A stretch of DNA of 64,000 nt from Escherichia coli (GCF_024700885.2 NZ_CP117016.1); one strand, 5' to 3'. Counted from the first letter of the stretch, positions 34,120-43,800 are shown. The notes: generated by a model from the letters alone, not told the origin. Translations and numbers: made by a program.

Positions 34120-34836
34120 TCAATACTCCCATGCCTCAAACGCTAACGGCATATTATTTAACAAATCCCGACGCTCACGCCAGTCAGGAATAAACTGATC
34201 CATATGCAACCGGAAGCGAGCATTATGGTGACGTTCCAGAAGATGAACCAGTTCATGCACCAGAATATACTCCAGACACTCCGGCGGCTTCTTAATTAGC
34301 TCCAGATTGAGCCAGATTCGTTTTGTTGTAGTGTTACAGGTGCCCCAAAAGGTTTTCATCTTTTTGATGCCCCAGAATGTTAGGGGAACACCGATTCGGT
34401 CCTGCCATTCAGGTAGAAGCTTAGCCACCTGCTGTTTTAGTTCATGTCGATAAAATTCACTTAACGCCAATGCCTTATTTTCATCACGGGTTCCCGGTTG
34501 AACATAAAGCTGGAGCTTATTATTTCCTGCAACTTTTACTTCGTGACGCCCGTGACGCTCAATCACAAGTAGGCGATATCTTCGGCCCCAAAGATAGTGG
34601 CACTCTCCGCTGACCATTTCCCTCTCTGATTGACGAGGCTGTCTGGCGAAATCCTGCTGCTGTTTTCTGATCCAGCGAAAGCGTGAAGCAACCGCCATAC
34701 GAATCGCCGTCTCCGTCATATGTTCCGGCGCTGAAACGCGGACTTTGCCATCAGGCGGCAGCACGCTGATATGCAGATTCTTAATCGCCTTACGGTTGAC
34801 CAGCAAGTGTAACGAGCCTATTTGCATGATTGGCAT
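34120..34836 (-). CDS. M48/DUF45-family (YgjP-like) zinc metallohydrolase
   Basis: 238-aa with HEXXH-type motif HELVHLLERHH; start overlaps hsdR stop by 1 nt. Confidence 0.6.
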   Translation of the reverse strand: MPIMQIGSLHLLVNRKAIKNLHISVLPPDGKVRVSAPEHMTETAIRMAVASRFRWIRKQQQDFARQPRQSEREMVSGECHYLWGRRYRLLVIERHGRHEVKVAGNNKLQLYVQPGTRDENKALALSEFYRHELKQQVAKLLPEWQDRIGVPLTFWGIKKMKTFWGTCNTTTKRIWLNLELIKKPPECLEYILVHELVHLLERHHNARFRLHMDQFIPDWRERRDLLNNMPLAFEAWEY

Positions 34837-37800
34837 CAGTGATATTCCTTCTGCTGACGGGCAAGCGCTATCACCTCATCAATATCAATATTATAGCTGG
34901 CGGTCTCTTCACGTAATGCGTTGGCAATTTCCCGTTCTTTAAAACGATCGCCAATCCACTCTGCCCTTTTGGTATAGCGAATCGTCGTATCTATGCGGGT
35001 CGCCAGTACCTCGTCGTGGCCGAAGTTATCATAGAAGGCGCGCTTTGCTTGTGTATCCATGGTGGCAGGGTAGCACGCTCCGGCGGTTTGCTCCGGGCGG
35101 ATGACCTGTTTACACAAATCGCGGATACGTTCCAGATACTGCTGATAATTGAGCGCATTTTGTCGGCGAAGGGTAATCAGTTCATCCAGCAGCTGCGACA
35201 TGCGTCCATAGTATTTTGGGTTAACCGGGTTTTCATCCACGATGGTTTTGCGCACGTTGTTTTCGATGGTTTCCGCCATCGCATCCTGATTATTACGGAT
35301 ATCATCCGGCAGGGCGACGGTCGCCGCCAAGCCTTTCTCGACAATCAGTTCAATCAGACTTAACTCTTCAAAATCCATCAGCACTTCGCTACCATCGGCG
35401 CGAACATACATATCCAGTAAATGACGCATAGCGGGTTCAAAGCGCTTCATATCCAGAAGATCGCCGCTGGTCAGCTTAATCTCATAGCGCAGTTTTTCGA
35501 ATTCAGCGACTTCGGCGCGAATGCTCTCTACCTCTTCGGCAGTGTAGCCTGCTTCCGGCATTTCATTGGCGATGCTGGCATAAGCGCGTAGCAGACGGGC
35601 GACGCACTGGTAAAATGTCAGGCGCAGCGCCTCTTTTTCGTTTAACGAAGTCTGATTCTCTCCTGATTCACCGCAAAAATAGTGCTGATAGTCCAGCAGG
35701 CTGCGCGGGGTTTTGACGGGTTCACATAAGCTGCGAACCATCTCCAGCGCGCTGTCGAGATCCAGTTGCGCCTGCTCCAGCCTGTCTTTCAGCAACCCGG
35801 CCACATCGTCCCGATCGTAATCATCAAACGCGCCCGTGGTGTAATCGGTAATCGCTTTATCCAGCGAACGGAACAGATCTTTATAATCGATAATATAGCC
35901 ATACTCTTTATCCTCACCGTCCAGCCGGTTCACCCGACAAATCGCCTGAAACAGCGTATGGTCGGTCATGGTTTTATCAATGTAGAGATAGGTGGCGGAC
36001 GGCGCGTCAAAGCCAGTCAGCAGCTTATCCACCACGATAAGCAGGCGCATTTGCCCCGGCTCTTCAATAAAACGCTGTTTCACTTCCCGCTCGAACTCGG
36101 TAATGCGTGCGGCGGCCTTCTCTTCACTTTGTTCAAAATAGTCAGCCAACATTTTACGATAGGTGGCGTGTTTAGAGAGTTTCTCCGTTAACCCTTCGCC
36201 CGTTTCTTCGCCTTTGATGCTGGCGGCATCGGGGCGATAGCTGGTCACAATCGCTACTTTTCCTGCCAGCTCGGTCTGGCTGAACATCTCGTAAACCTTG
36301 CAGGCTTGATAGATACTGCTGCATACCAGCATGGCGTTGCCGCGCCCGTCCATCAGGCGTGGACGGGTATCCATATCCAGCAAAATGTCGTTAACGATCT
36401 GCTCCAGCCGCGACTTGCTGGAGAGCAGCTTCTGCATTGATCCCCACTTTTGCTTAAGCTGGGTCCTGGCTAAATTCGACAAACCGCGAGTCTTGGCTTC
36501 AAACCAGTCATCGACCTTTTTCTCTGATGTCAGATACTGGTCAATATCGCGTGCCTCGTAGCGCAGATCCAGCACCACACCGTCGGCCACCGCTTCATCA
36601 AATTTATAGGTATGGATATAAGGGCCGAACACCTCAACCGACTTCTTCTTATCTTTCTTCATCAGCGGTGTGCCGGTAAAACCGATAAACAGGGCGTCCG
36701 GCAGAATGGCAGTCATGGCGTTATGCAGCTTGCCGGATTGTGTGCGGTGGCACTCGTCCACAAAAACAAACAGATCGCCTTTGGCGCGGAATGTTTTCGT
36801 CAGGGACTGCTGTAATTCGGTGATAAAGGCGTCGGTAGCCGCATTGTCTTCAGCTTCGCTGCGACGACCAAATTTATGCACCAGCGAGCAAATGAGCCAC
36901 GGGTTAGGATGATTGAGCGTTGCGATAAGATCGTTGCCGCTGGAGGTGCGATAAATATCTTCATTCACGCCCATAAACACGCTTTCGATCTGTTCATCCA
37001 GTTCGGTGCGGTCAGTCACAATCAACACGCGGGAGTTTGGCACATTTTCACGGATCCACTTCGCCAGCCAGACCATCGTCAGGCTTTTACCCGATCCCTG
37101 TGTGTGCCAGATAATACCGCCTTCACGACGGGCAATATGTTGTTTAGCCGCCTCGACGCCGAAGAACTGATTATGGCGGCAGAGTTTTTTCACCCCGACA
37201 TCAAAGGCAATGTAATTATGGACGATATCCAACAGCCTGGATTTGCTACACAGACGACTTAAATGAAAGTCGAGTTTATGTGTATAGTCGCCTGGATTAT
37301 CTTCTTTCCACTCCAGATAGTATTTTTCCGGGGTTTCGATGGTGCCGTAGCGCAGGCCCTGCGTATCGTTGCCCGCCATCACTAACTGCATAGTGGTGAA
37401 GAAATCGCGGATAAAGGTTTTCTTTTGATTATCGAGATTCTGCCGGATGCCTTCGCTGACGTGCACTGACGAACGCTTAAGTTCAATCACGCCCAGCGCA
37501 ATGCCGTTAACGTACAGCACCAGATCCGGGCGCTTGCAGTACTCGCCTTTGACCGTCACCTCATCGGCGATGGCGAAATCATTGGCTTGTGGGTTGGCCC
37601 AGTCAATCAGCCACACGGTTTGGTTCTGCTCGCCTGCGCCTTCTTTGTCTTTCACGCCGTAACGCAGCAGGCGATAGACCTCTTTATTGGCGTAATAGAG
37701 TTTTTTGCCTTCGCCCAGAGCGGCGGCGGAATCCAGTTGCCGCAACGCCCGGGTGATCAACGTATCATTAACGCCGCGCCGTTTTAGCCACGCGCTCAGT

Positions 37801-37931
37801 ATATTAGTGTCGATGTTGCTGTTCCCGGTGTACCCGGTGCGGTGACTCAGATGGCGGTAACCTAAATCTTCAACAAAAAACTGAATCAGACGCTGCTGTG
37901 TGGCGCGTTCGCGCTGGCCCACGGTACTCAA
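34836..37931 (-). CDS. hsdR: Type I restriction enzyme R subunit (HsdR)
   Basis: 1031-aa; helicase motifs TQGSGKSLT (Walker A) and FVFVDECHRTQ (DEAH-like motif II); downstream of hsdM/hsdS on same strand. Confidence 0.8.
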   Translation of the reverse strand: MSTVGQRERATQQRLIQFFVEDLGYRHLSHRTGYTGNSNIDTNILSAWLKRRGVNDTLITRALRQLDSAAALGEGKKLYYANKEVYRLLRYGVKDKEGAGEQNQTVWLIDWANPQANDFAIADEVTVKGEYCKRPDLVLYVNGIALGVIELKRSSVHVSEGIRQNLDNQKKTFIRDFFTTMQLVMAGNDTQGLRYGTIETPEKYYLEWKEDNPGDYTHKLDFHLSRLCSKSRLLDIVHNYIAFDVGVKKLCRHNQFFGVEAAKQHIARREGGIIWHTQGSGKSLTMVWLAKWIRENVPNSRVLIVTDRTELDEQIESVFMGVNEDIYRTSSGNDLIATLNHPNPWLICSLVHKFGRRSEAEDNAATDAFITELQQSLTKTFRAKGDLFVFVDECHRTQSGKLHNAMTAILPDALFIGFTGTPLMKKDKKKSVEVFGPYIHTYKFDEAVADGVVLDLRYEARDIDQYLTSEKKVDDWFEAKTRGLSNLARTQLKQKWGSMQKLLSSKSRLEQIVNDILLDMDTRPRLMDGRGNAMLVCSSIYQACKVYEMFSQTELAGKVAIVTSYRPDAASIKGEETGEGLTEKLSKHATYRKMLADYFEQSEEKAAARITEFEREVKQRFIEEPGQMRLLIVVDKLLTGFDAPSATYLYIDKTMTDHTLFQAICRVNRLDGEDKEYGYIIDYKDLFRSLDKAITDYTTGAFDDYDRDDVAGLLKDRLEQAQLDLDSALEMVRSLCEPVKTPRSLLDYQHYFCGESGENQTSLNEKEALRLTFYQCVARLLRAYASIANEMPEAGYTAEEVESIRAEVAEFEKLRYEIKLTSGDLLDMKRFEPAMRHLLDMYVRADGSEVLMDFEELSLIELIVEKGLAATVALPDDIRNNQDAMAETIENNVRKTIVDENPVNPKYYGRMSQLLDELITLRRQNALNYQQYLERIRDLCKQVIRPEQTAGACYPATMDTQAKRAFYDNFGHDEVLATRIDTTIRYTKRAEWIGDRFKEREIANALREETASYNIDIDEVIALARQQKEYH

Positions 37932-43455: not shown

Positions 43456-43494
43456 TAAATATCTCGTTTTGCGCGATAATGTGCCGTAAGTCGG

Positions 43495-43800
43495 TTACAG
43501 CAGATCGGTATTCAGACCGGCGGCCTTTAACCGATGGGTTAAGTTACGCATTTTGCTGAATTCGGTACCGAGGCTCTGGTTCAGACCAGTGCCTTCGCAA
43601 AAGGCTTTTGCCGTAATGTGTTCCAGTTTGTCGGCATATTTAATCATTTGCAGGTGCAGCTCGACGGTGTACTGGTTACGAGGCGCACTGGAAAGTGCCT
43701 GCCGGATATGGCGATAAATCTCGTCTTCATTCATATTCATGGCAACCACTGGTATAATAGATAAGTTAGCTAAATTAGCTAAATGTGGTATCAGGTTCAA
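43495..43800 (-). CDS. Small hypothetical protein directly upstream of hsdM (possible regulator)
   Basis: 81-101 codon ORF, same strand, 40 bp upstream of hsdM; tandem TTAGCTAAA repeats just upstream of it. Confidence 0.35.
   Translation of the reverse strand: MNLIPHLANLANLSIIPVVAMNMNEDEIYRHIRQALSSAPRNQYTVELHLQMIKYADKLEHITAKAFCEGTGLNQSLGTEFSKMRNLTHRLKAAGLNTDLL

Follow-up and report, generated by a model that had tools for sequence, protein, structure and literature searches.

A seven-gene Escherichia coli locus with DarTG between hsdS and hsdR as a probable allele of the RRDM defence island

A run of seven tightly packed genes in Escherichia coli (GCF_024700885.2, NZ_CP117016.1) raises the question of whether a DarT/DarG pair lying between hsdS and hsdR represents a coupling of two defence systems peculiar to this DNA or an island already described. 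The genes occupy positions 34120-43800 of the window, the 64,000-nt stretch that was analysed as a whole. The original prediction, made from the sequence alone, read them as a type I restriction-modification (RM) operon with an embedded DarT/DarG module, a small upstream open reading frame (ORF) and a trailing DUF45 hydrolase, and profile searches bear out every one of these components (Table 1). The RRDM defence island (RptR-RMS-DarTG2-M48) has been published, first from enteropathogenic E. coli (EPEC) E2348/69, and we put the probability that these genes are an allele of it at about 0.92.

Table 1 Predicted features of the locus, in order of transcription
Feature	Position	Strand	Product and basis of assignment
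Promoter and RptR operator	43757..43800	(-)	Sequence read; elements match EPEC-mapped ones
rptR	43495..43734	(-)	79 aa; homodimeric repressor of island promoter; HTH_73 PF24718
hsdM	41017..43455	(-)	812 aa; type I RM N6-adenine methyltransferase subunit; TIGR00497
hsdS	39683..41017	(-)	444 aa; specificity subunit; PADLOC Specificity_I
darT	39014..39670	(-)	218 aa; DarT2-type ssDNA thymidine ADP-ribosyltransferase toxin; NF048013, PF14487
darG	37950..39017	(-)	355 aa; antitoxin, macrodomain and DarT-binding domain; NF048014, PF01661
hsdR	34836..37931	(-)	1031 aa; TTG start; type I restriction endonuclease/translocase subunit; TIGR00348
YgjP-like/M48 gene	34120..34836	(-)	238 aa; zinc hydrolase; PF01863

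All seven ORFs predicted for the locus are present and co-directional, on the minus strand, which the prediction had left unstated. Gene starts were taken from the RefSeq annotation of a genome carrying a 100% identical copy of the island. With these starts, rptR and hsdM are separated by 39 nt, the largest gap and within the 40 nt first proposed; hsdM and hsdS overlap by 1 nt (TGATG), as do the hsdR stop and the start of the YgjP-like gene; and the distances of 12 nt from hsdS to darT and 18 nt from darG to hsdR are reproduced. The proposed 16-nt overlap of darT and darG shrinks to 4 nt (ATGA): the longer value comes from an in-frame ATG further upstream, while the downstream ATG agrees with the RefSeq call, the DarG profiles and the length of the EPEC protein (355 aa).

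The RRDM island was described in enteropathogenic E. coli O127:H6 E2348/69 (NC_011601, 1150268-1159908) by Zhang et al. (Nucleic Acids Res 2025; PMC12255303), and it has the same seven genes, in the same order, on the same strand and with the same junctions as the locus studied here. DNA homology to EPEC spans 34021-44567, and the encoded proteins are 96.2% (RptR), 97.7% (HsdM), 98.6% (DarT), 100% (DarG), 99.6% (HsdR) and 99.6% (YgjP-like) identical. The two loci differ in their flanking IS elements, and homology to the EPEC DNA compared does not extend to an adjoining 314-aa ORF (44733-45677). The one strongly divergent protein is HsdS, only 40.6% identical to its EPEC counterpart because both target-recognition domains (TRDs) have been swapped for unrelated ones, while the conserved regions at the N terminus, in the centre and at the C terminus barely differ. 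Since both TRDs are replaced, HsdS would be expected to recognise a different DNA sequence from that of the EPEC enzyme. GC content falls to 0.385 at 40001-41000, in the hsdS region.

The remaining RM subunits carry the motifs of a predicted type I system. HsdM reaches 282.8 bits against TIGR00497 (cut-off 242.75), matches PADLOC MTase_I over its full length and has the NPPF motif at residue 264; it ends in a C-terminal extension of approximately 360 aa, and its match to solved HsdM structures covers residues 1 to approximately 450 and no more. HsdS, with two variable TRDs between conserved regions, matches PADLOC Specificity_I at E=3e-131. HsdR scores 546 bits against TIGR00348 (cut-off 284.55), matches PADLOC REase_I over its full length, and combines the nuclease motif D136-X13-E150-X-K152 with the helicase motifs GSGKS at 279 and DECH at 392; its nearest solved relative is the HsdR of EcoR124I (E=3e-35).

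Could the two embedded ORFs instead be what decay has left of a longer hsd gene, as the original prediction itself allowed? Both match their NCBIfam equivalog models end to end and far above the curated cut-offs (DarT, NF048013, 262.6 bits against 150; DarG, NF048014, 451.1 bits against 250), in agreement with PADLOC (E=2e-74 and E=1.5e-127, respectively). DarT covers positions 1-201 of the 201 in PF14487 (E=3e-53), and the macrodomain PF01661 lies at DarG residues 18-129 (E=4.5e-21). The catalytic residues are intact in both: DarT Glu170, within YQAEAL, falls where the solved DarT chains 7OMV and 7YK3 carry an Ala substitution, and DarG Lys80 lies within an FPTKQHW motif. DarT differs from the biochemically characterised EPEC protein only at positions 97, 139 and 213, and the DarG sequence is that of EPEC DarG, WP_000634203.1. 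Neither protein matched any hsd-related model, and our searches found nothing in favour of a remnant origin, which we consider close to impossible.

The EPEC counterparts give these proteins a well-defined biochemistry. EPEC DarT ADP-ribosylates TTT/TCT in single-stranded DNA, a reversible modification with a toxicity that DarG neutralises, and the C-terminal domain of EPEC DarG binds DarT (PMC7003065); the legend of Fig. 1A in that paper lists an E170A variant of DarT, which served as a control in the ADP-ribosylation assays. DarG of the present locus matches the Thermus DarG macrodomain (PDB 5M31) at E=4e-55, and its residues 183-351 match 7YK3_B, annotated 'DNA ADP-ribosyl glycohydrolase', at E=5e-13, with a weak Pfam match to SocA_Panacea at residues 191-274. 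The protein is thus predicted to carry the DarT-binding, sequestering C-terminal domain as well. The two DarTG subfamilies are distinguished by their associated antitoxins (PMC11543638), and the N-terminal macrodomain places the pair in DarTG2 rather than with the DarTG1-type antitoxin.

DarTG of Thermus aquaticus and Mycobacterium tuberculosis (Jankevicius et al. 2016, PMC5179494; PDB 7OMV, 5M31 and 7YK3) shares with this locus the DarT fold, its catalytic Glu, the toxin-then-antitoxin order and a DarG macrodomain with the PTK lysine. The solved DarT chains are nevertheless remote in sequence (phmmer E=1.6e-26 and 2e-15), and EPEC-type DarT prefers TTT/TCT, as against TNTC (PMC7003065).

The upstream ORF, to which the prediction gave 81-101 codons, has 79, starting at the ATG at 43734. 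The 101-codon reading, with a TTG start at 43800, was rejected: this TTG opens the -35 box TTGAAC, codons 2-20 are translated promoter and operator, and its 'LANLANLS' stretch is a translation of the TTTAGCTAA repeats. The 79-aa product is a single-domain protein that matches Pfam HTH_73 (PF24718) at E=4e-28 and is identical at 76 of 79 positions to chain A of the crystal structure of RptR (RMS-proximal transcriptional regulator), PDB 9R2Z (PMC12255303). The three differences from EPEC (N2D, N52S and H67R) leave unchanged all the residues that the same study names for alpha-4 DNA binding (E58, S60 and K61) and for dimerisation (V24, E25, L65, R68, L69, A72 and L74).

Upstream of rptR, the sequence reads as a promoter with the -35 box TTGAAC (43800-43795), a 14-nt spacer and the -10 box AGCTAATTT (43780-43772), overlain by three phased 9-bp repeats: TTTAGCTAA at 43783-43775, TTTAGCTAA at 43774-43766 and CTTATCTAT at 43765-43757. 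An RptR operator is defined by two or more 6-bp palindromes of the TAGCTA type, phased 9 bp apart and overlapping the -10 box in front of rptR (PMC12255303). Here TAGCTA, TAGCTA and TATCTA lie within 43782-43758 at that phasing and overlap AGCTAATTT, a predicted RptR site; TATCTA is one of four variants predicted to bind RptR (PMC12255303). In EPEC, where promoter and operator were mapped using reporter assays and EMSA, RptR dimers bind phased TAGCTA-type sites over the -10 box cooperatively and repress the promoter upstream of rptR (PMC12255303). Both loci have the same -35 box, 14-nt spacer and functional 5' -10 box, whereas the EPEC operator has three canonical TTTAGCTAA units and, in addition, CTTATCCAT as its last unit. 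Two canonical repeats plus TATCTA are the arrangement of most E. coli, this locus included, and the number of repeats may tune basal expression between lineages.

Is the whole locus expressed as one unit? Neighbouring genes overlap by at most 4 nt or stand at most 39 nt apart, with stop and start codons overlapping at three junctions, from which we infer that a single transcript starting at the RptR-controlled promoter probably covers all seven genes. The words 'operon' and 'co-transcription' are absent from PMC12255303, which mentions 'native promoter(s)' and measured hsdM only. Terminator-like and promoter-like sites on the minus strand within the operon are no commoner than in shuffled sequence (13 promoter-like matches against 11.9 expected). 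Three weak sigma-70-like matches do cluster at 40035-39843, shortly before darT, where the 3' portion of hsdS is AT-rich.

That cluster, within the last approximately 350 nt of hsdS, would allow an internal darTG promoter, and with it a different role for the pair: an independently transcribed toxin-antitoxin unit, or an addiction or stabilisation cassette that settled in an hsdS-hsdR recombination hotspot and keeps the RM operon or island from being lost. Jankevicius et al. (PMC5179494) raised this very possibility, and the hsdS-hsdR slot of related operons takes unrelated cargo, consistent with a hotspot. On the other hand, the number of promoter-like matches is at chance level, and gaps of 12 and 18 nt on the two sides of darTG, with no terminator, make read-through from upstream hard to avoid. 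Members of the DarTG2 family defend against phage by themselves, and in E. coli darTG (248 genomes) and the near-identical hsdR-M48 allele (250 records) are almost always together. We therefore regard a separate or purely stabilising darTG as unlikely; such a role is in any case compatible with the RRDM reading.

Varying cargo is seen in Vibrio cholerae. Three loci of the same type I RM family (L003-L005), with sequences that end inside hsdM and were thus compared from hsdM onward, encode HsdR and YgjP-like proteins 79% and 72% identical to those here, with the same insertion slot between hsdS and hsdR and the same 1-nt overlap of hsdR and the YgjP-like gene. In this group of operons the cargo is a GmrSD-related type IV restriction system, or SMC/AAA and AlbA_2 genes, in place of DarTG; TgvAB on VPI-2 is likewise embedded in a V. 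cholerae type I RM cluster (PMC11411939). The pair of hsdR and the YgjP-like gene thus stays joined while the cargo between hsdS and hsdR varies among related operons.

The trailing hydrolase matches the YgjP-like family PF01863 (the former DUF45) at E=1e-61 over model positions 5-206 of 207, as predicted. Its HExxH motif is intact (HELVH at 194-198), with H194 and E195 invariant and H198 nearly so among 23 homologues. RefSeq names the product 'M48 family metallopeptidase', a label that is loose: the profile of the M48 (Ste24/HtpX-type) peptidases, PF01435, gives no better than E=0.081 on a 48-residue stretch about HExxH, and the protein is a zincin of the YgjP-like/DUF45 family. The gene directly follows hsdR, with the 1-nt overlap, in all the loci compared, whichever cargo sits between hsdS and hsdR, and its product, with 66-76% identity between Enterobacterales, Vibrio and Methylomicrobium, is far more conserved than HsdS or the cargo. 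This points to a role as an accessory to HsdR, not to DarTG.

The translational coupling to the hsdR stop codon and the same conservation could be taken further. The zincin would then be a regulatory protease dedicated to this type I RM family, and would cleave RptR when phage infects, degrade HsdR (a self-encoded restriction alleviation) or clear stalled HsdR from DNA. Cleavage of RptR is modelled on CapP/CapH and IrrE/DdrO and removal of HsdR on Wss1/SPRTN, and the protein has a Pfam SprT-like match (E=3e-6). For derepression, PMC12255303 proposes that RptR must be either proteolysed or sequestered, by a factor that it leaves unnamed; its authors favour a phage-derived RptR partner, and RptR homologues also occur beside non-RM modules, which argues that RptR is generally independent of the YgjP-like protein. 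The fold match spans only approximately 85 residues and is generic for zincins; nothing matched the first 150 residues, and the model confidence is moderate (pLDDT 74.7). E. coli K-12 YgjP has been annotated as a weak nucleotide pyrophosphatase; if that holds, 'peptidase' may be a misnomer. The putative protease role is accordingly a tentative suggestion, with the odds against it.

Under the RRDM reading, RptR would hold the island promoter repressed and phage infection would raise its expression, as shown for the EPEC orthologue. By analogy with what is established for the families concerned, HsdM2S would methylate the host recognition sequence and HsdR2M2S would translocate along and cut unmethylated incoming DNA, while DarT, as an abortive-infection-type arm, would ADP-ribosylate thymidine in TTT/TCT on single-stranded DNA and stall replication; the DarG macrodomain would reverse the modification and its C-terminal domain would sequester DarT. 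The layered defence unit first proposed agrees with experiments on the near-identical EPEC island: once cloned, it blocks several phages, and transcription of hsdM rises more than 15-fold on phage infection, the protection being that of the island as a whole, since sub-clones to separate RM from DarTG could not be made (PMC12255303).

The RRDM island is carried by approximately 247 of 5426 complete E. coli genomes. Among the three aspects that the original prediction singled out for testing, the trailing hydrolase is so far a described part of the island, whereas the other two are already covered by published work. That DarTG can be inserted in type I RM operons was noted in 2016 (PMC5179494), and phage assays on the complete island followed in 2025, so the coupling of RM and DarTG is already known; the upstream ORF encodes RptR, for which a crystal structure is available and the operator has been mapped.

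The seven ORFs between window positions 34120 and 43800 all lie on the minus strand and encode, in order, RptR, HsdM, HsdS, DarT, DarG, HsdR and a YgjP-like zinc hydrolase, hereafter the zincin. Gene starts follow the RefSeq calls of strain MLI114, whose island copy is 100% identical to that of the window and which differs from the whole 64-kb window by 3 mismatches, all within the central 33.7 kb. Along the operon, hsdM follows rptR after 39 nt and overlaps hsdS by 1 nt, darT follows hsdS after 12 nt and overlaps darG by 4 nt, and hsdR follows darG after 18 nt and overlaps the zincin gene by 1 nt. 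Because the junctions range only from a 39-nt gap to a 4-nt overlap, the tight packing of seven co-directional genes proposed in the original prediction holds, while two of its details needed correction. The darT and darG genes overlap by 4 nt (ATGA type) and not by 16 nt, a figure that would require an upstream ATG; the four residues gained from that start have no support in the DarG profiles or in the 355-aa EPEC protein. Likewise, the upstream ORF has 79 codons, not 81-101. A 101-codon rptR would open with a TTG at 43800, where the -35 hexamer begins, and its next twenty codons would be promoter and operator; this and the 81-codon version were both rejected in favour of the ATG at 43734, which is backed by RefSeq, by the crystal-structure sequence and by the published family length of 79 aa (PMC12255303).

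Genes of the island and their positions in the window.
Gene	Coordinates	Strand	Basis of start
rptR	43495-43734	-	RefSeq start, MLI114
hsdM	41017-43455	-	RefSeq start, MLI114
hsdS	39683-41017	-	RefSeq start, MLI114
darT	39014-39670	-	RefSeq start, MLI114
darG	37950-39017	-	RefSeq start, MLI114
hsdR	34836-37931	-	RefSeq start, MLI114
YgjP-like gene (zincin)	34120-34836	-	RefSeq start, MLI114

Profile matches above curated cut-offs bear out the predicted type I restriction-modification (RM) operon with DarT and DarG encoded between hsdS and hsdR. All three Hsd subunits (HsdM, HsdS, HsdR) score above the cut-offs of type I models, and the motifs NPPF, D...ExK (nuclease), GSGKS and DECH are present across the subunits, in a family whose cycle comprises methylation, translocation and cleavage. 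Both of the ORFs proposed as DarT and macrodomain protein gave significant matches: DarT scores 262.6 bits against NF048013 (cut-off 150), matches PF14487 end to end (E=3e-53) and is recognized by the PADLOC DarT model (E=2e-74), and DarG scores 451 bits against NF048014 (cut-off 250), with a Macro domain (E=4.5e-21) and a PADLOC DarG match (E=1.5e-127). The catalytic residue is retained in each (Glu170 in DarT, Lys80 in DarG). The alternative that these two ORFs are pieces of a longer hsd gene is ruled out by the full-length equivalog matches and by 98.6-100% identity to the characterized EPEC proteins. The small first ORF belongs to Pfam HTH_73 (E=4e-28), and the last gene to the YgjP-like family PF01863 (former DUF45; E=1e-61), with HELVH at residues 194-198; the 'M48 family' label that the last gene carries was rejected, as the Pfam M48 profile gives no significant match (E=0.08).

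The architecture, regulator, regulator structure, operator and anti-phage activity of the EPEC E2348/69 orthologue were already published in 2025 by Zhang et al., who named the island RRDM (Nucleic Acids Res 2025; PMC12255303). In that system, RptR (PDB 9R2Z) represses its own promoter through operator sites overlapping the -10 box, its dimers binding cooperatively to three 9-bp direct repeats, TTTAGCTAA, in which TAGCTA is the minimal site and two sites suffice. Infection induces the island, hsdM rising more than 15-fold, and the whole island protects from phage; in a survey of RptR homologues, 54 of 117 adjoin type I RM systems, 12 of those 54 also with darTG2, and the M48 gene is a recurrent neighbour (PMC12255303). 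The association of DarTG with type I RM has itself been known since 2016 and is covered in earlier work by Jankevicius et al. (PMC5179494). EPEC DarT is toxic through ADP-ribosylation of thymidine in single-stranded DNA at TTT/TCT, and EPEC DarG neutralizes it in two ways, by its macrodomain and by its C-terminal domain (Lawarée et al., PMC7003065).

The EPEC locus was fetched and compared with the window gene by gene. DNA homology extends over 34021-44567, and the encoded proteins are 96.2% (RptR), 97.7% (HsdM), 98.6% (DarT), 100% (DarG, one shared WP accession), 99.6% (HsdR) and 99.6% (zincin) identical, whereas HsdS is only 40.6% identical. The conserved regions at the two ends and in the centre of HsdS are near-identical, and its two target-recognition domains are unrelated to those of EPEC; GC falls locally to 0.385 at this gene. 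Swapping of target-recognition domains is the usual route by which type I systems change specificity. The window RptR differs from its EPEC counterpart by N2D, N52S and H67R and is identical to the crystallized chain at 76 of 79 positions, with all residues named as important kept (PMC12255303). HsdM, at 812 aa, aligns with solved HsdM structures (445-638 aa) over residues 1 to ~450 only, and its C-terminal ~360 residues (window 41017-42105, minus strand) have no Pfam domain; homologues in Vibrio and Methylomicrobium are 806-817 aa long, and the Photorhabdus HsdM matches over its full length. The island is common in E. coli: at least 80% of it is held by 247 of 5426 complete genomes, darTG occurs in 248 genomes, and a near-identical hsdR-M48 allele is found in 250 records.

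The operator differs between the two alleles. On the minus strand of the window, TTGAAC is followed after 14 nt by TTTAGCTAA TTTAGCTAA CTTATCTAT (repeats at 43757-43783), whereas the EPEC promoter, mapped as TTGAAC, 14 bp and AGCTAATTT (PMC12255303), has an operator with TTTAGCTAA three times and then CTTATCCAT. The window operator therefore has one canonical repeat fewer, two against three, with the functional 5' -10 box and the 14-bp spacing the same in both. The third window unit holds TATCTA, one of the four variants predicted to bind RptR (TAGCTA, TAGATA, TATCTA and TATATA; PMC12255303), whereas the corresponding EPEC unit holds TATCCA, outside those four. Operator forms were counted with a synthetic three-repeat query of 160 nt, which matched 249 E. 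coli records. In five of these, EPEC among them, identity is 95-99%, and the EPEC match covers all 160 nt; the remaining 244 are 90-95% identical and, among the matches listed, cover 150-151 nt, the 9-nt-shorter form. Judged from these matches, operator repeat number is polymorphic, two canonical repeats plus TATCTA being the common form and three canonical repeats, as in EPEC, the minority. Under the published rules, RptR would be expected to repress the common form fully as well.

The tight junctions suggest that all seven genes would be read as one transcript. Minus-strand terminator-like sites occur in the operon at no higher frequency than in shuffled sequence, and a consensus scan of the operon for internal promoters and terminators is uninformative because its counts match those in shuffles; the scan also fails to detect the experimentally mapped promoter of the island, as the hexamers there do not reach its match threshold. 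Of the six sigma-70-like consensus matches on the minus strand of the operon, three lie close together at 39843-40035, in the AT-rich 3' end of hsdS and shortly before darT. If darTG had a promoter of its own, it would be sited here, although with the overall count at chance level the cluster may mean nothing.

The zincin gene directly follows hsdR, with a 1-nt overlap, in every neighbourhood examined, while the content of the hsdS-hsdR interval varies. In V. cholerae this interval holds an SMC/AAA_21 gene and an AlbA_2/HATPase_c_4 gene or, alternatively, GmrSD_N, AAA_15/DUF3696 and further genes; in Methylomicrobium it holds Fic and AlbA_2/HATPase_c_4, in a diverged E. coli locus two DUF262 genes, and in Photorhabdus nothing. 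The Photorhabdus locus retains an RptR remnant and a TATCTA-TAGCTA-TATCTA operator; the fetched Vibrio and Methylomicrobium loci stop within hsdM or shortly short of it. Across the relatives' loci HsdR is 76-79% and the zincin 66-76% identical, and the zincin has a great many homologues, with strong conservation (~70% identity in Vibrio, Methylomonas and Marinomonas). Given this constant adjacency and conserved identity despite a varying interval, the zincin appears to go with HsdR of this type I family and not with DarTG. The interval is a general cargo site, as already noted for RloF, for an RNA-binding/AAA pair and for TgvAB (PMC11411939). A literature search on YgjP, DUF45, COG1451 or PF01863 together with type I RM found nothing relevant, and a sequence search of the PDB with the zincin gave insignificant minigluzincin matches only. 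The zincin may be a regulatory protease with RptR or HsdR as its target, though this is less likely than not.

Just upstream of the island, outside the EPEC-shared segment that ends at 44567, lies a low-GC 314-aa ORF (44733-45677, plus strand; RefSeq 'hypothetical protein') with sub-threshold matches only in PADLOC and Pfam (PDC-S14, E=0.0075; GIY-YIG at the N-terminus, E=0.017). The same genomic island carries an antirestriction protein gene (54475-54960, plus strand) and a CbtA/YeeU-type toxin-antitoxin pair (55899-56694); in the diverged E. coli locus an antirestriction gene lies two genes beyond the hsdR-M48 pair. The mosaic island ends at a tRNA-Ser gene (GGA; 58468-58555, minus strand), and the core genes ghrA, ycdXYZ and csgGFED lie beyond. 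Elsewhere in the window are a decayed salmochelin (iro) cluster (10052-14456) adjoining an IS150 copy, with iroC and iroE frameshifted, iroN truncated and only iroD intact in a genome with identical sequence here, and an Afa-like chaperone/usher/AfaD cluster (14932-18765, plus strand) with strong positive GC skew (0.20-0.29). The very low GC (0.27-0.30) of an ABC-transporter/TolC-family cluster (22203-27135) suggests recent foreign origin.

The original prediction was correct in observation and interpretation, and the finding is a rediscovery of a characterized system, which makes it already known and of low interest. It carries little weight as a discovery, and its value is that of a correctly read example. 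What the comparison with the EPEC allele indicates, from the split of 5 against 244 records between identity bands, is that the experimentally studied three-repeat operator is carried by a minority of sequenced E. coli.
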